Origin: Candidatus Enterousia sp.
Lineage (GTDB): Bacteria > Pseudomonadota > Alphaproteobacteria > Rs-D84
Direction: 5' to 3'
DNA length: 59,435 nucleotides
Assembly: GCA_045636045.1 (NCBI GenBank)
Contig: JAZTWT010000008.1
Location: 1 to 59,435, forward strand
The position numbers and the translations under genes were made by a program. Positions 12,057-34,964 of this stretch are shown here, one piece after another (positions within the stretch are counted from its first letter, which is position 1; every line of letters starts with the position of its first letter). Under the pieces are notes generated by a model that ran no database searches, was not told the origin of the DNA, and saw only the letters and a program-made list of their open reading frames with translations.

Positions 12057-12147
12057 TGGCGGAGACAAAGGGATTTGAACCCTTGATACGGGGTTACCGT
12101 ATACACGATTTCGAGTCGCGCGCATTCAACCGCTCTGCCATGTCTCC
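12057..12147 (-). tRNA. tRNA-Ser(CGA)
   Basis: Reverse complement GGAGACATGGCAGAGCGGTTGAATGCG-CGCGA-CTCGAAA-TCGTG...GGTTCAAATCC...GTCTCCGCCA; long variable arm and encoded CCA. Confidence 0.95.
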
Positions 12148-16140: not shown

Positions 16141-16228
16141 GGAGCGTTGGCAGAGTGGTAATGCAGCAGATTGCTAATCTGTGACCGAAATTTTTGGTCC
16201 ATAGGTTCGAGTCCTATACGCTCCGCCA
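16141..16228 (+). tRNA. tRNA-Ser(GCT)
   Basis: GGAGCGTTGGCAGAGTGGTAATGCA-GCAGA-TTGCTAA-TCTGT, long variable arm, GGTTCGAGTCC, ending CGCTCCGCCA. Confidence 0.95.
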
Positions 16229-28536: not shown

Positions 28537-28559
28537 AAACGCCCAAACGGGCGTTTTTT
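28537..28559. terminator. Bidirectional terminator
   Basis: aaacgccc-aaac-gggcgttt between convergent recN and the GT2 gene. Confidence 0.75.
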
Positions 28560-29448
28560 ATGGATTAATATGTTTTGTGCCAATATTGATTCCAAACAGA
28601 TAATACCTAATCCGTTTAGTTAATATATCTTTTCTGAAGATTGTGCGATTAAACATTTTAAATATTTCTGTTTTATATGGCTCTTCTGGTGCAGACAACA
28701 TATCTACAACATCGTGATCAACCAAGAACTGCCAATATCTGCGCCATGCTGCTTCTGCCTCGGGCTTTGTTGCTGCTTTTTTCAGTTTTTTACGCTGTTT
28801 CCCTAATGCAGTAATCGTGTTTACCACATTATAACGTGCGCCCGGCACGGTTGCCACACTGTCCGCCAAAACAATCGCAGGGCGTGTAAAGATTAAATCT
28901 TGTGCACCAAAAATCGCTGGTTCAAAACGCAGGTTTGTTCTGTCCAAGAATTCCTTTTTATAAACATACCGCCACGCCGGTTTAAATTTATTCGCACGCA
29001 CAGTCAAAATCTTATCAGCCATATGTGTGCAAATTTCAATTTTATCAAACACCGGGAAATTATAGTCCGGCTGATTAACTTCGCCACACAGAATATCTGC
29101 ATCTGTCAAGATTGCAGCATTCATCATTTTTTCGAAATAATCCAGATTCACAAAATCATCATGATCATGAAAATGAATCCATTCCCCATGCGCGGCATCT
29201 AAACCTGTATTAGATGCAACTGACGGTCCTGCATTTTCCTGGCATATAACTTTAATACGTTTATCAGATTCTGCCCATTTTTCACATACGGCCACACTGT
29301 TATCTGTACTGCCATCATCCACAATAATAATTTCCAGATTTTTATATGTCTGGTGTACCAAATGCGTGACGCATTTATCAATAAACTTTTCTGCATTATA
29401 CATCGGTATAATAACAGAAACCAACGGATTTATCAATTTTTCAGACAT
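28558..29448 (-). CDS. Glycosyltransferase family 2
   Basis: VSVIIPMYNAE, EIIIVDDGSTD, NAGPS...N.GL, F-H-D-H-DD (DxD motif). Confidence 0.92.
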   Translation of the reverse strand: MSEKLINPLVSVIIPMYNAEKFIDKCVTHLVHQTYKNLEIIIVDDGSTDNSVAVCEKWAESDKRIKVICQENAGPSVASNTGLDAAHGEWIHFHDHDDFVNLDYFEKMMNAAILTDADILCGEVNQPDYNFPVFDKIEICTHMADKILTVRANKFKPAWRYVYKKEFLDRTNLRFEPAIFGAQDLIFTRPAIVLADSVATVPGARYNVVNTITALGKQRKKLKKAATKPEAEAAWRRYWQFLVDHDVVDMLSAPEEPYKTEIFKMFNRTIFRKDILTKRIRYYLFGINIGTKHINP

Positions 29449-29452
29449 AAAA

Positions 29453-29640
29453 ACTCCTATAATGCCTCAGTATAGGAGTCGGGAAGTTCGATAAGCCAGA
29501 TAACTTTGACCCTGTGACTTTCAAGTGCAGGGAACCCCACACTTTTTTGTATAATCACAGCTTCCCGACATTTATGTCGGGACAGCTAGTCAAAACATTT
29601 TGTTAGTTATCTGGGTTATCGACGCCCAACTGCTAACTGA
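29453..29640 (-). ncRNA. Candidate structured RNA (cis-regulatory leader of the GT2 gene, or an independent sRNA)
   Basis: 17/18-bp stem 29488-29505/29605-29622, an outer imperfect stem, two inner hairpins, and a competing 9-bp anti-SD hairpin. Confidence 0.6.
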
Positions 29641-29698
29641 CAAAGATAATAATAACTGAATTAATTCCCAAACGCAATCATATATTCCTGAAAGTCGC

Positions 29699-29727
29699 TT
29701 GAACGAGATACTGAATTTTGATATAAT
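29699..29727 (+). promoter_or_regulatory. Sigma70-type promoter for amiC (probably leaderless mRNA)
   Basis: TTGAAC-17 nt-TATAAT, with the ATG 7 nt later and no SD. Confidence 0.6.
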
Positions 29728-29734
29728 ACGAAGC

Positions 29735-30901
29735 ATGAAATTCAACAGACGCGATATCTTAAAAATGACTGGCCTGGGCATTGCCGGTGTGTTTATTCTG
29801 CCGCGTATGGCATTTGCTGCACGGAACACATTGCGTTCTATGCGAACCGGGGTTCAACCGGGCGGAAAAACACGTCTGGTAATTGAAACGGCGAACCGTC
29901 CATCATATTCGATATCATATCCAACTGGACAACTGGTTGTTAATTTATCTAATACTGGCGCAAATAATGGTGTATCGGCCACATTGGCATCTGACGGATT
30001 AATTAAATCCATTTCCCAGGTTCAAAGTGGCGACAGTCTGCAAATTGTTGCATCATTAAAGAAATCAATTGCCCAAATACCAAAGTCTGGAATTATGGTT
30101 TTATCGCCAAATGGCGATAATGATTATCGATTGGTGTTGGATTTTGTTGCTGGCACAACTAACACAGCACCTGATTCATATACAACATCATCTGCGGCGA
30201 CAACCACTGCCATAACTGCATCGCGCAAATATATAATTGTAATTGATGCCGGCCACGGCGGCAAAGACCCCGGCTGCATAGGCAAGGGTGGAACACGCGA
30301 GAAAGATGTCGTATTATCTGTCGCACGTAAATTAAAAACTAAGCTGGACGCAAACGGATTTAAAACATATTTAACACGCAGCGACGACAAATATTTAAAA
30401 CTGGGGCAACGCGCTGAAATCGCTGAATCGCGCAAGGCTGACCTGTTTATATCATTGCACGCGAACGCCAATCCCTCGCGCAAGATGAAGGGCTTTTCAA
30501 TCTATACATTGTCTGAAAAAGCATCAGACGAGGAGGCAAAAAAACTGGCCGAGGCTGAAAATGCCGCTGATAAAATCGGGGTAGAGGGGTTCACCGAATT
30601 CGAAGAAAATATCCGTATTGCATTATCTTCGTTACAGCAGCATGCCGTCGCAGAAATGAGCGAAGAATACGCCAACGGTTGCGCAAAATCATTCAAACGC
30701 GCATCTATTGAACAACAGCCTGGACCAGATGTTCGTCATGCGCCATTTGCTGTATTGCGTTCAACAGTGCCTGGCGCATTGCTGGAATTAGGGCATTTAT
30801 CTAACCCTGCCGAAGAAAAATTATTAAAGTCCAGCAGCCATCAGGACAAATTAGTAAACGCCATTGTCCGCTCAATCAAAAATTATAATTTCGAAGTATA
30901 A
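29735..30901 (+). CDS. amiC: N-acetylmuramoyl-L-alanine amidase (Tat-exported; AMIN-like domain plus Amidase_3)
   Basis: Tat signal NRRDILK; IVIDAGHGGKDPG, EKDVVL, DLFISLHAN, FAVLR and LLELGHLSN. Confidence 0.93.
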   Translation: MKFNRRDILKMTGLGIAGVFILPRMAFAARNTLRSMRTGVQPGGKTRLVIETANRPSYSISYPTGQLVVNLSNTGANNGVSATLASDGLIKSISQVQSGDSLQIVASLKKSIAQIPKSGIMVLSPNGDNDYRLVLDFVAGTTNTAPDSYTTSSAATTTAITASRKYIIVIDAGHGGKDPGCIGKGGTREKDVVLSVARKLKTKLDANGFKTYLTRSDDKYLKLGQRAEIAESRKADLFISLHANANPSRKMKGFSIYTLSEKASDEEAKKLAEAENAADKIGVEGFTEFEENIRIALSSLQQHAVAEMSEEYANGCAKSFKRASIEQQPGPDVRHAPFAVLRSTVPGALLELGHLSNPAEEKLLKSSSHQDKLVNAIVRSIKNYNFEV

Positions 30902-31132: not shown

Positions 31133-32377
31133 TTACCTTGTACCTGTAACATTTATTCTTGGCGTTGGCTGCGTATTCATTTCCTGACTTTCCTTCGTAC
31201 CATACACGCACTCTTTATAGTCTTGAGGCGAAGCCATAGTCCAACATTGATCTGTTAAATTATTCTTAAAATCTCCTTTTAATTTTCCCTTGCCAAATTG
31301 CAAATCATTGTGTGTAAAACCCTGTGCAGGTTTACAATCACCACTCTCAATATCAAAATATTCCCCCAGTTTACTACACACAACGCATGTGCCATCCTTC
31401 GGACTGGGGCCACCACGAACGTCCGACATGCATTCTACGCACTCATTTGTCTTTCCGGCCTCCGGAAATGCCTTGTCAGGATCCTTACAAACATAAATAT
31501 AACAATTTGAGAAATTGTTTTTATGCAATCTGTGCAACTTAATGTCAAAATCACTTTCCGGGAAATTTCCACAGAACACTGGATTTGTCGACTCTAACAT
31601 CGCCTGATTGGCCAGAATACAATTTGTGTTATCTTCATTTGGTTGAAAACCCTGCTTGCAAAGTAATTTTCGTGTATTAGACATCGTTCCAACACGTGTC
31701 ACCCATGATACGACACCATTCCAGCTATCCCAATCACAACCAACCAAAACCGGGGCCGCAATAACACCGTTTTCCAAAAACTGCACAATCCCCAAGATAA
31801 CATTCTGTTCAGCCTTGTCCTTATTGTTTGTTCTATTAAGCCAATAGTATTCATTAAAACCCGTCACATTATTTTCGCGACGAATCAAATCGTCTTCACC
31901 ACTTGTATGTCTATGTACCCCTTTACTGAGCTTTTTTATAACATCTACACCATCAGTGGCATTATCGACATAATACTGCTTTTCACAGTTTGGACCCGAA
32001 TATCCACGTTCACACAACCATGCACACTTATCCGATGAATAGCCCGCCGCTTGATAATATTCAAACCATACAGTTGTGTTTTTTTTCTTGTTGGCACACT
32101 GCAACTGATACGGACAGAAATATCCACCATGTTCATTAATTTGTGTACCAATAACCGCAACAATCGCCCCTTCGTCAGACCAGGTACCTCTACTCCCCTT
32201 TGACAGATCACCATCTACAATAAACTCACCGGCAGACCCAGAAGTCACAATGGTGTTGTTTGGCGTATACCCCCAGGCTTTTTTTATATTAGCCGAGGCA
32301 ATTTGAATCGCGCTTGCAGAATACACAATCCCTGTAAAAGACACAATTGCAGCAAAAAGAAACCTAACTTTTTTCAT
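31133..32377 (-). CDS. Exported Cys-rich hypothetical protein (~414 aa)
   Basis: Signal peptide MKKVRFLFAAIVSFTGIVYSASA, about 20 Cys, EGF-like CERGYSGPNC. It starts just after the upstream stop (alternative start 32386). Confidence 0.82.
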   Translation of the reverse strand: MKKVRFLFAAIVSFTGIVYSASAIQIASANIKKAWGYTPNNTIVTSGSAGEFIVDGDLSKGSRGTWSDEGAIVAVIGTQINEHGGYFCPYQLQCANKKKNTTVWFEYYQAAGYSSDKCAWLCERGYSGPNCEKQYYVDNATDGVDVIKKLSKGVHRHTSGEDDLIRRENNVTGFNEYYWLNRTNNKDKAEQNVILGIVQFLENGVIAAPVLVGCDWDSWNGVVSWVTRVGTMSNTRKLLCKQGFQPNEDNTNCILANQAMLESTNPVFCGNFPESDFDIKLHRLHKNNFSNCYIYVCKDPDKAFPEAGKTNECVECMSDVRGGPSPKDGTCVVCSKLGEYFDIESGDCKPAQGFTHNDLQFGKGKLKGDFKNNLTDQCWTMASPQDYKECVYGTKESQEMNTQPTPRINVTGTR

Positions 32378-32389
32378 ATTCGTCATTCC

Positions 32390-34918
32390 TTAATTCTCGG
32401 GTGCGACATAACAGACACCGTTTTCATAATATCCATTACCCAACAATTGACACTGACGCTGATACCATTCGGCACTGAACTTACATTCATCGGTTGCTGC
32501 ATCATATATTGCCAACGGGACAGAGAGGCTGTTTTCGTCAACATCCGATTTATCTGCAATGACATTTGAATTGTACGCTTCGCACAATACACGTGTTGTA
32601 TTTTCTACGCAACGCCCCCATTCTTCAGCGCCCTTAACAGTACTGCCACTGCCTTTACCATACAGAGCCGTATAAAACGCTGTCAAATCAGCCGTTCCTG
32701 TCCACTTTCCACCATTGTCACTTGCCAAAACATCTGCATCAATCCAGTATCCGTTTAATTCTTCGCACTTTTCAATGAATTTATACTCCAACTGCCAACG
32801 AATCTCATTAATCGCCTGGTCAATCTTATTTTGTGTTGCCAATGCTATTGCGCCATACCCCTGCATTGCTGACTTTAACTGCGCCAAAGTAGCCTCTGCA
32901 GAAAAGTTTGGCTTAGGCGCATTGTTTGTCGGATCTGCGCACACATCAACCGCAAAATTATAAACATTTCTGGTTAAATCAGTTAATCCCCACTGACGGC
33001 AATTCCATGGATATGCTTCCTTGCTGCCATCCGTTGGTGTGCACCACTCTTTTAATTGCGTTTCAATTGCTGTATCACATCCTTCGGCAACACGAACATT
33101 ATCAACCGCATCAACAAACGCCAACAATTCTGTCAGACCGCAACGTCCAGATGAAACATTCCCATTTTCATCAACCAAACGACCGTTTCCATCAAATTTA
33201 CAATTCTGATTATCGCCATATAACGATGCACAAGCCATAACCTTATCTTCACACATTGCTTTGGCCGCATATGCAGAAATCGCCCCTGATGTTTTTGCAG
33301 TTGTATCATCAAACGATTTCAATGCACTTGATTGTTTATCATAACATTCACTCATTGTTTGTACACAAGACATCTTGACTTCTTCAATCTTGGCATCCTG
33401 TGCCTGGGCAATTTCAATCAATGCCATACGTTTAAACTCTGTCCACACGTTATCAGCAATCGTACGACAAGAATCCAATGCACTTTCTGCATACATTTTC
33501 TTAGTTTCCAAGAATTTATCAAAAGCCGGATTTTGCCCCAATAAATCAGTATTACCAGTGGCGCCTTCCAATGTAATAATATTCGTCAATTCAAACAGGC
33601 GTGGAGAATAGACCGCACCCCCAGTTGATGGATTAATGTACGCACCACTGTAATCCAAACAGCGTTTATAATTTGCGCCACACGCCGTTTCCGCAAACAT
33701 AGCCGTCTGAACCTTAGAGATACATTCATTTACATCACGTGAATTATGCGCACGATATTCTTCCAAACGCGCTTCGCGCAATATTTTTTCTGCCTGACGA
33801 ACCGTAGTTAAAACCTGTTCACGTTTTTTATTCAAACTCTTCTCATACATATTACAATCTTGGGTAATCATAATATTATATGCACTGGTCGCCATGTTTA
33901 AAATCGCACTGTTCTCGCACGAATCCTTCATAACCTGAAGACACTGTTTGTTCGACGCGTTATATAAAGCAATCCCCTCCAAATCAGTCATATCAACAGC
34001 TTTTGAATTATCAAACAAGGATTCTCCGCCATCGCCAAAATTACCATTACCACCCCAAATATCACCCATATCTGTTGAAAAATCTAATGAAATAACCCCC
34101 AAAGAACCAGAATTAGCAGTAGTTGTCGCGTTACTGGATACAGCCTTCTTTTTTCCAGACAACAAATCACCAATTTCATTCAAAATGCTTTGTGCACCAC
34201 TGGTATCCTTTTTAATCGCAGCCTCACCAACAGTGGCAGAATACATAGCATCAACTTCTTCGGCTGTTTTATCAACCGCATTCAAGTTATTGTCTTCAAA
34301 CCTCTGCAGCAAAACCTTGGCCTGATCCATCGCCTGTTCCATATCATAAAACTCTGTAAAACGTGCACTACAGAAACAGCGACGATATGTATCATTGGCA
34401 TTTGCACAGAACTGATCCATACATGTTGCATACGCGTCACGACAATCAGAATATCCGCCACCAATTTTTGATATATCACTGAACACAGCAGTCGCACGCG
34501 CCTTGGTCGCAGCACGTGCAAAACCTGATTTAACAGTATTTATCGCACTGCGCGCATTGTTTGTTGCACCACGCCCCGTACCAACCGCACTTCGAGCACC
34601 CGTCGCGCTACGCATTAACGCAGGTGTCCCCTGACGCACATCCAGTGCAGTTCTGGCTGTTTTCTTCTTCTCAGAATCAGCGTTCCTCGACTGAACAACC
34701 ATCGGACGACGCACCGAACTGCGCGATGAATCGGAGACTACACTAGCAGCCTTGCCTCCACCACGCTTTACAACTGCACCATCAGCACGTGCCGGCGCAA
34801 CATTTGCAACCGTCGCACTACGTGGATTTGGTGCCTGATCTGCAGACGCAACATCGGCACATACAACTGCGGCCAACAGGGCCGAAAACTTACAAAAATT
34901 TGCGAATATGTTTCTCAC
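32390..34918 (-). CDS. Exported helical Cys-patterned hypothetical protein (~840 aa)
   Basis: Signal peptide ending ASA, a basic R/S/A-rich linker, then CRDAYATCMDQFC...RRCFCS and coiled-coil segments with spaced Cys. Start is GTG 34918 or ATG 34948. Confidence 0.85.
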   Translation of the reverse strand: MRNIFANFCKFSALLAAVVCADVASADQAPNPRSATVANVAPARADGAVVKRGGGKAASVVSDSSRSSVRRPMVVQSRNADSEKKKTARTALDVRQGTPALMRSATGARSAVGTGRGATNNARSAINTVKSGFARAATKARATAVFSDISKIGGGYSDCRDAYATCMDQFCANANDTYRRCFCSARFTEFYDMEQAMDQAKVLLQRFEDNNLNAVDKTAEEVDAMYSATVGEAAIKKDTSGAQSILNEIGDLLSGKKKAVSSNATTTANSGSLGVISLDFSTDMGDIWGGNGNFGDGGESLFDNSKAVDMTDLEGIALYNASNKQCLQVMKDSCENSAILNMATSAYNIMITQDCNMYEKSLNKKREQVLTTVRQAEKILREARLEEYRAHNSRDVNECISKVQTAMFAETACGANYKRCLDYSGAYINPSTGGAVYSPRLFELTNIITLEGATGNTDLLGQNPAFDKFLETKKMYAESALDSCRTIADNVWTEFKRMALIEIAQAQDAKIEEVKMSCVQTMSECYDKQSSALKSFDDTTAKTSGAISAYAAKAMCEDKVMACASLYGDNQNCKFDGNGRLVDENGNVSSGRCGLTELLAFVDAVDNVRVAEGCDTAIETQLKEWCTPTDGSKEAYPWNCRQWGLTDLTRNVYNFAVDVCADPTNNAPKPNFSAEATLAQLKSAMQGYGAIALATQNKIDQAINEIRWQLEYKFIEKCEELNGYWIDADVLASDNGGKWTGTADLTAFYTALYGKGSGSTVKGAEEWGRCVENTTRVLCEAYNSNVIADKSDVDENSLSVPLAIYDAATDECKFSAEWYQRQCQLLGNGYYENGVCYVAPEN

Positions 34919-34964
34919 TTCAATTCTCTCTTTTTTGCATTCTAACATTTTTTGCTATTTTAAA

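Follow-up and report, generated by a model that had tools for sequence, protein, structure and literature searches.

Directly 5' of the AUG of a family-2 glycosyltransferase (GT2) gene of Candidatus Enterousia sp. lies a structured leader RNA of about 190 nt (29449-29639, minus strand). It belongs to a new family of structured leader RNAs, multi-copy and restricted to one lineage, that is distantly related to sRNA-Xcc1. The structure of this RNA is conserved, two of its pairings are mutually exclusive and nearly equal in stability, and its linkage to a downstream gene is obligatory. We think it rather probable that the GT2 mRNA has the element as its 5' leader and that the element, as one of a multi-copy family of ~160-230 nt RNAs, acts in cis as a two-state attenuator. 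All positions refer to the window, by which we mean the whole stretch of 59,435 nt that was analysed; base p of the RNA corresponds to window coordinate 29640 - p.

The locus

The leader RNA sits between the GT2 gene (28558..29448, minus strand; Pfam PF00535, E = 1.8e-36) and a divergent amidase gene on the plus strand (Pfam Amidase_3, ATG at 29733). The run of five U that closes the RNA is abutted by the GT2 AUG. A sequence-only reading of the same DNA had claimed an RNA on the GT2 strand immediately 5' of this AUG, and the comparisons below bear out both its conservation and its place. The RNA and GT2 form a module that is absent from the same amiC-adjacent locus in three species of the genus.

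Some further features of the surroundings may be recorded here. The amidase-proximal part of the intergenic region (29652-29740) is 81-86% identical in the three species of the genus without the module, and in some relatives an inverted repeat, GGAAUAU...AUAUUCC, occurs in it. In 29699-29735 (+) there is a promoter-like TTGAAC-17-TATAAT preceded by a TG; it ends at 29727, leaving just 5 nt to the amidase ATG at 29733, which suggests either a leaderless mRNA or a later start codon. Near the amidase gene are two long ORFs of 417 and 852 aa (31133-32386 and 32390-34948, minus strand) with no Pfam match. Over the window (1-59435) GC skew is positive to ~22 kb and strongly negative (-0.13 to -0.33) from ~30 kb; the sign changes near 22-29 kb, where a replication origin or terminus may lie. 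Two tRNA genes, at 12060-12147 (-) and 16141-16225 (+), are the sole Rfam matches in the whole window at gathering cut-offs, and in the region of the element no Rfam family reaches its cut-off.

Fold and covariation

On the minus strand a 221-nt stretch has a minimum free energy (MFE) of -80.8 kcal/mol. Dinucleotide-shuffled sequences give -50.3 +/- 4.5 (z = -6.75), and none of the 200 reached the native value. Since the fold of the plus strand is almost equally stable (z = -6.5), fold energy alone cannot assign the strand. Three other lines of evidence assign the RNA to the minus strand. G-U pairs, which would be A-C on the other strand, are frequent (at three of the pairs they occur in 29, 26 and 14 sequences, for example); the covariance model described below scores 189.8 bits on the minus strand versus 22.4 bits on the plus strand; and the U-run and the downstream gene are both on the minus strand.

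The sequence-only reading had proposed covariation among homologues as a check, and counts of paired cells and of two-sided changes bear on it. Across 41 aligned copies 94.8% of 1878 cells hold standard pairs, versus 72.5% in shuffles, and changes on both sides are seen at 39 of the 51 pairs; this alignment was fitted to the covariance model and hence leans toward it. When the partners were slid by 1-3 columns as a control, only 30-44% of the cells remained paired. The helices that covary are the closing rod (P1a and P1b), P2, P5, P6 and the terminal hairpin.

Read from its 5' end, the RNA begins with the strand CAGUUAGCAGUUGGG (29625..29639, minus strand), which pairs with 29467-29483 to form P0 and which is our proposed antiterminator; P0 is part of the MFE fold of the window copy. 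It is followed by the 5' strand of P1, the long closing (rod) helix (29605..29622), whose two parts are 95.0% and 95.4% paired, with 5/6 and 9/9 pairs changed on both sides. Both the long closing helix (29488-29505 with 29605-29622, 17 of 18 pairs) and its extension (29467-29483 with 29625-29640) had been noticed from the letters, and the minus-strand MFE fold contains both. P2 (29596..29602) is a small variable hairpin in which 3/3 pairs covary (87.9% paired) and which has GAAA-type loops in some homologues. P4 (29559..29587) is a hairpin, UCCCGAC / GUCGGGA with a 4-bp extension; it is 96.7% paired and largely invariant. Its 3' arm, GUCGGGAAG, doubles as the 5' strand of an alternative helix, P1x, discussed further on.

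In the alignment P5 (29512..29560) is a stem with a conserved internal loop, UAUACAA / AAA, and with the variable hairpin P6 at its distal end. P5 and P6 are 99.6% and 94.6% paired and all 12 of their 12 pairs covary. Of the two inner hairpins in the sequence-only reading, the one at 29559-29587 is thus real and conserved, being P4; the other, ccctg/caggg at 29510-29532, has to be given up, as the family evidence places its bases in P5 and P6. All the helices proposed can be located at the coordinates given, and this is the sole one that the family contradicts. The 3' strands of P3 and P1 are contained in GGUCAAAGUUAUCUGGCUUAUCGA (29488..29511), which in an Xcc1-like fold could instead form a local hairpin, GGUCA...UGGCU; P3 is the weakest helix (83.2% paired). 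Next comes the conserved AACUUCCCGAC (29478..29488). It is the 3' strand of P1x, its CCC anchors P0, it is invariant among 15 close homologues and it can pair with GUCGGGAAG in 95.4% of cells. The RNA is closed by the terminator-like hairpin ACUCCUAUA / UAUAGGAGU followed by UUUUU (29449..29479), 99% paired with 5/8 pairs changed on both sides. The conserved unpaired parts are UAUACAA facing AAA(A/G) in P5, AGGUC and AACUUCCCGAC.

Two competing states of the 3' end

A hairpin and a U-run close every copy listed. The sequence-only reading had described the hairpin as a perfect 9-bp helix (29471-29479 with 29453-29461); it is real, UUUUU and then the AUG follow it, and hairpin and U-run are found in 41 of 41 aligned copies. 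In the window copy the stable 9-bp stem with UUUUU has the form of an intrinsic terminator, and we treat it as a predicted one. It was left uncalled by a simple consensus terminator scan, apparently because its 9-nt loop exceeds the 8-nt limit of that scan.

In P0 the first ~15 bases of the transcript, CAGUUAGCAGUUGGG, pair with CCCGACUCCUAUACUG, a stretch that runs from immediately upstream of the terminal hairpin through its 5' arm and into its loop. By taking the 5' arm P0 excludes the terminal hairpin. This agrees with the earlier proposal that the outer helix and the hairpin which buries AGGAG are mutually exclusive, and the two states of the window copy are predicted to be nearly equal in energy (-74.4 vs -74.1 kcal/mol). 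Of 11 copies folded, four have P0 in the MFE structure, with gaps to the terminator state of 0.3 (the window copy), 2.0, 0.9 and 2.2 kcal/mol; in the other seven the terminator state is the MFE structure and P0 is absent.

If P0 is a genuine pairing, the 5' strand of each copy should fit its own 3' partner better than that of others. When cofolding was anchored at GGG:CCC, cognate strands of 35 dereplicated copies gave -11.07 kcal/mol versus -9.07 for non-cognate ones (Wilcoxon p = 2.6e-4; none of 5000 permutations was as low); 24 of the 35 copies did better and 11 no better than average. By this anchored test the competition is a feature of the family and not of the window copy alone. The unanchored duplex test was marginal (-6.82 vs -6.20 kcal/mol, p = 0.057), with 183 of 5000 permutations reaching as low a value and 24 of 41 copies doing better. 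Both tests overstate independence, because the copies are related. In the subfamily whose 5' end carries a GGGA-loop hairpin, UUCC stands in the terminator loop in 12 of 23 copies, versus 2 of 38 elsewhere, which suggests that a GGGA:UUCC loop-loop contact could seed P0.

The predicted folds thus contain what a riboswitch-type expression platform contains, namely mutually exclusive terminator/antiterminator or Shine-Dalgarno (SD)-masking helices, and the family has a conserved core of invariant columns. No known riboswitch model matches the region at E <= 10. The sequence-only reading had likewise recognized no riboswitch; that part stands, but the RNA does have a relative, since its 3' half resembles Rfam sRNA-Xcc1 below threshold.

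In the window copy the AGGAG SD (29454-29458) is within the 3' arm of the terminal hairpin. The 3' arm being AGGAG and the U-run the spacer to the AUG, in the window copy and its genus-level relatives the same choice of structure also decides whether the ribosome site is accessible. In most other copies the SD is 10-25 nt beyond the hairpin, so the mechanism shared by the family is more likely to be transcription attenuation than a purely translational one. The translational switch proposed earlier for this locus survives only as far as the masked SD of the window copy; attenuation is the likelier common mechanism. A search of the 85%-complete genome for Hfq, CsrA and ProQ gave none of them, and for this reason a mechanism in cis fits better than a classical trans-acting sRNA.

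How might such an attenuator work? In the ON state the first ~15 bases would pair with CCCGAC and the 5' arm of the terminal hairpin (P0), lengthening P1. The terminator would be blocked, AGGAG would be free in the window copy, and GT2 would be transcribed and translated. In the OFF state the terminal hairpin and U-run would form and transcription would stop, leaving an RNA of ~190 nt; in molecules of the window copy that are read through, the SD would be buried. We infer that termination actually occurs at the U-run and that some signal sets the balance between the states. The likeliest signal might be a small ligand or a factor that recognizes the conserved core, made up of the P4/P5 junction and the UAUACAA/AAA loop, and thereby fixes or releases the 5' strand.

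The 5' end and expression

A -10-like box, TATTAT (29646..29651, minus strand), can be read in the sequence 6 nt upstream of the proposed first base, C29639. A strict scan upstream of the RNA gave no full sigma-70 promoter, and a search for a shared upstream promoter or operator showed in the close subfamily only the -10-like box. In the larger subfamily, which opens with the small GGGA-loop hairpin, TAnnnT precedes the conserved 5' GAAY (GAAUC) start by 4-16 nt in 22 of 23 copies.

Four metatranscriptome runs were searched. One of them contained 9% of the sampled words, two short contigs were obtained in all, and three runs gave nothing. One 218-nt contig covers 29492-29709 with 2 differences; it carries no information on strand or ends and may be DNA. 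This contig extends 70 nt past the proposed start at C29639, which speaks weakly against that start, and the 5' border of the RNA in the window is accordingly provisional.

Many PAP2-type copies (L086-L109) have a hairpin of variable sequence and RGACA 10-45 nt upstream of the model start, and their A-rich RGACA stretch shows partial complementarity to the last bases of the terminator 3' arm together with the U-run. There is also a longer subtype of ~240 nt (L144, L147, L149, L151, L155, L157, L159, L162 and L113), in which the model start falls ~50 nt inside the RNA. It starts with GAAUCC..GGGA..GGGUUCGGGG and contains, in addition, another hairpin and a CCGGUGC motif.

A lineage-restricted family of many copies

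A first comparison with 41 relatives gave two clear homologues, from another family of the same order, with the hairpin and U-run before a small PAP2 gene. By a search with the conserved pattern the element was found in 13 of 328 genomes of the order. In a species-representative collection the pattern gave 43 matches, of which 13 were judged to be family members (2 of them new) and 30, in unrelated taxa, to be due to chance.

A covariance model, R1, was built from the alignment of 15 close homologues. In a run with 17 candidates scored per genome it had matches in 122 of the 151 genomes sampled from this order; each match extended over the whole length of the model, and those listed scored 58-206 bits. 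With 150 candidates scored in each of three genomes, 26, 16 and 7 copies were counted. Taken together the matches number roughly 640 or more. The genome of the window has four: the window copy itself (C8, 189.8 bits) and three further diverged copies at 37-45 bits (C29:44097-44259, C17:181-358 and C9:16350-16543), each before a protein without a Pfam match. A DNA search of this 0.96 Mb, 85%-complete genome found no second near-identical copy; the element matched itself alone, and the idea that it is a near-identical repeat was dropped.

The hosts of the family are gut Alphaproteobacteria with reduced genomes of ~0.9 Mb, the named ones being Candidatus Enterousia. In other alphaproteobacterial genera weak matches occurred in only 2 of 149, at 45 and 31 bits. 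Excerpts of one study characterize Enterousia (order Rs-D84) as inhabiting the gut of farm animals and having genomes of less than about 1 Mb (PMC12306168); these excerpts mention neither 'RNA' nor 'lipopolysaccharide'. In the available portions of the sRNA-Xcc1 and Enterousia literature we found no description of this RNA family or of the extended Xcc1 architecture set out below.

Genes downstream of the family

In 66 of 69 copies an ORF on the same strand starts no more than 40 nt from the end of the match or the U-run, which leaves no space for a separate promoter. The three exceptions have 88 nt, 118 nt and, in one case, no ORF of at least 60 aa at all. Among a first set of 24 downstream ORFs, Pfam recognizes PAP2 in 12, GT2 in 2, and GT6, GT92, RgpF, HtrL_YibB (weakly) and an outer-membrane protein (OMP) barrel in 1 each; 5 have no match. 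A second set of 25 comprises 3 OMP barrels and single representatives of PAP2, GT2, RgpF, PLD-like, sulfatase-type and Cys-rich repeat proteins. The remaining 16 have no Pfam match, and by eye their N-termini are mostly signal-peptide-like.

The common theme of the downstream genes is the cell envelope and not glycosylation alone. A control specific for surface glycosylation, as read from the window alone, does not hold for a family whose downstream genes encode PAP2 phosphatases, glycosyltransferases of several families, outer-membrane barrels and secreted proteins.

The 3' half and sRNA-Xcc1

The Rfam family sRNA-Xcc1 (RF02221) matches the window copy end to end on 29470-29569 (-), with 35.5 bits and E = 1.5e-4. 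The score is below the gathering cut-off of that family (53 bits), as are those of other members: 7 of 16 family loci match at E < 0.1, with 32.5-51.8 bits and always in the 3' half. The best score for RF02221 in the genome of the window is 47.5 bits.

One link between the two is P1x, in which GUCGGGAAG pairs with the distant CUUCCCGAC instead of the nearby UCCCGAC of P4, and which is the closing helix of the sRNA-Xcc1 model. The sequence-only reading had listed it as a perfect 9-bp alternative (29478-29486 with 29561-29569), and it can indeed be drawn: 95.4% of cells allow the pairing. Most of it does not vary, covariation being limited to 2 pairs (4 cells), and one pair is broken in 8 of 39 sequences. 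Compensatory changes occur only in the three diverged copies from the genome of the window (C29, C17 and C9), where GGGGAG or GGGGUG is found with CUCCCC or CACCCC. If the Xcc1-like fold is forced together with the terminator, it is predicted to be 8-16 kcal/mol worse than the MFE rod fold, and the freed 5' half folds on itself.

sRNA-Xcc1 was described in Xanthomonas, and excerpts of two papers place it in front of symE on integron cassettes and ahead of an ORF6N gene in APSE phage (PMC12444791, PMC7313666). It is widespread in Proteobacteria, where it scored over the cut-off in 24 of 151 genomes in a separate sample. We compared 20 true loci (L115-L134, 56-77 bits) from other Proteobacteria. 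In most of them a same-strand ORF begins 14-53 nt downstream, and several of these ORFs have N-termini that look antirepressor-like by eye. An exact complement of at least 7 nt to the Xcc1 hairpin or 3' region is present upstream in 20 of 20 true loci versus 81 of 380 non-cognate pairings. This motif recurs, over at least 6 nt, just before the downstream AUG in 15 of 20, versus 147 of 380. A long-range rod like the Enterousia-type fold appears in 4 of the 6 true loci folded. It seems, from the upstream complements and the rod folds, that the RNA is larger than the Rfam model, which represents a single conformer of its 3' half. The Enterousia-like family, for its part, seems to be a contiguous, terminator-bearing version of this extended Xcc1 architecture.

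The upstream segments at true Xcc1 loci have some regular features. They lie ~95-125 nt upstream, are complementary to the second hairpin and the strand that follows it, and covary locus by locus (examples are GCCGAAAACC / GGUUUUCGGC and CAAACAG / CUGUUUG). After them comes a GCGG-NNN-CCGC hairpin and CACCCG(U/A)C, and the same word is often found again before the AUG.

Alternative explanations

It could be asked whether the element is not a leader at all but an independent gene for a trans-acting sRNA, with a constitutive terminator and incidental read-through into the neighbouring gene. Such an RNA would pair with mRNAs, for example by its CUUCCC masking ribosome sites of the GGGAAG type. 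The Rfam class of the related sRNA-Xcc1 is 'Gene; sRNA', papers citing the original sRNA-Xcc1 study call it trans-acting in the excerpts available, every copy has its own hairpin and U-run, and GGGAAG-like sequences before the AUG of several downstream genes match the GGGAAG of the RNA itself. A free-standing sRNA gene, however, has no need of a same-strand gene within 40 nt, as 66 of the 69 copies have, nor does this explanation sit well with up to 26 diverged copies in a genome, each with private covarying helices. The lack of any Hfq or ProQ found and the SD inside the hairpin of the window copy point the same way, and we consider a trans-acting sRNA rather unlikely. We have much the same doubts about a role like that of c4 of phages P1 and P7. 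Here a released 3' Xcc1-like domain would act copy by copy on its own transcript, pairing through its private hairpin or 3'-strand sequence either with the 5' strand, which would serve as decoy, or with a repeat close to the ribosome site, and so giving each surface gene a self-addressed feedback. The upstream complements (20 of 20), downstream repeats (15 of 20) and rods (4 of 6) of the true Xcc1 loci are what it would lead one to expect, and in two PAP2-type copies (L090 and L097) the word GAUAUUAC from the 5' strand of helix P1 is found again between SD and AUG. Neither the window copy nor its 14 close homologues have a repeat at the ribosome site, though; the Rfam c4 model (RF01695) finds no match, the downstream motif enrichment at true Xcc1 loci is modest, and release of the 3' domain by processing would have to be assumed.

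Two further possibilities are much more remote. An element at the DNA level, be it a MITE, a REP-like palindrome or a recombination site, would account for a long imperfect palindrome that is multi-copy and folds on the plus strand with z = -6.5, and also for the missing RNA+GT2 module at the same locus in three species of the genus. It would not account for copies that have diverged with compensatory changes and G-U pairs and of which no second near-identical one exists in the genome, for a score of 22.4 bits on the reverse strand against 189.8, or for the fixed orientation to the downstream gene and the U-run; we regard it as very improbable. A divergent 6S RNA had been the alternative offered in the sequence-only reading. 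Its ~190 nt size and long closing helix are right, and the genome has no recognisable 6S elsewhere (E <= 0.01), but there is no RF00013 match in the region even at E <= 10, the interior is multi-branched with no central bubble, and 4 to 26 copies per genome are each linked to a gene. That idea can be set aside with hardly any reservation. The cis-acting two-state attenuator is the explanation that we prefer.

Possible significance

If the attenuator reading is right, this is a large and very abundant class of well-folded leader RNA that no Rfam family reaches at its gathering cut-off, and a candidate orphan riboswitch or attenuator. In an uncultured host-associated lineage it would control lipid A/LPS modification as well as outer-membrane and secreted proteins. 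With dozens of natural variants in each genome, it would be ideal material for finding the signal. sRNA-Xcc1, too, would have to be seen differently: its 87 annotated nt look like the 3' domain of an RNA that is longer, pairs with upstream sequence by conserved long-range helices and is followed by a gene.

A more speculative suggestion, to which we give only modest credence and which we would call unlikely as it stands, concerns the origin of the family. A phage or cassette immunity RNA of the sRNA-Xcc1/c4 kind might have been adopted by gut Alphaproteobacteria with reduced genomes as the main control of their outer surface. Up to 26 leaders per megabase would share a core sensing one ligand or ion, and private 'address' helices would flip each gene singly. 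If this is true, these bacteria would possess an RNA-only regulon that varies the surface without rearrangement of DNA, and what Rfam calls sRNA-Xcc1 would be no more than a single conformer adopted by the 3' half of a larger, bistable RNA.

Comparison with known systems

With the 87-position model of sRNA-Xcc1 the family has in common the 9-bp closing helix (here GUCGGGAAG/CUUCCCGAC), the stem with AUACAA...GAA-loop and the second hairpin. The three-way fold of sRNA-Xcc1 can be obtained in the family, but as an alternative to the more stable rod fold. True sRNA-Xcc1 loci likewise have a same-strand gene shortly downstream and long-range complements upstream. Unlike the sRNA-Xcc1 model, Enterousia-like RNAs carry a contiguous 5' half, a rod helix of 16-18 bp and a hairpin with a U-run. 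They stand before envelope genes (GT2, PAP2, OMP barrels and others) instead of phage or cassette genes, and the association with mobile elements is not seen. They also differ in reaching up to 26 copies per genome and in being confined to one order.

In the terminator/antiterminator platforms of riboswitches, and in antisense-driven attenuators such as that of pT181, segments compete for the 5' arm of a hairpin that precedes a U-run. The same is predicted here: directly upstream of a gene, a 5' segment and a 3' arm compete, and the states are near equal in energy. The difference is that the antiterminator would be the very 5' end of the transcript, ~150 nt away and brought near by the rod helix.

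In the c4 antisense RNA of phages P1 and P7, a segment pairs with an upstream decoy or with the ribosome site of the downstream gene. This RNA (Rfam RF01695) is listed in PMC2864571. A c4-like logic can be seen in the true Xcc1 loci, which precede what by eye are antirepressor-looking N-termini; from the window copy the repeat at the ribosome site is absent. And unlike c4, whose business is phage immunity, the RNAs of the present family stand before genes of the cell envelope.
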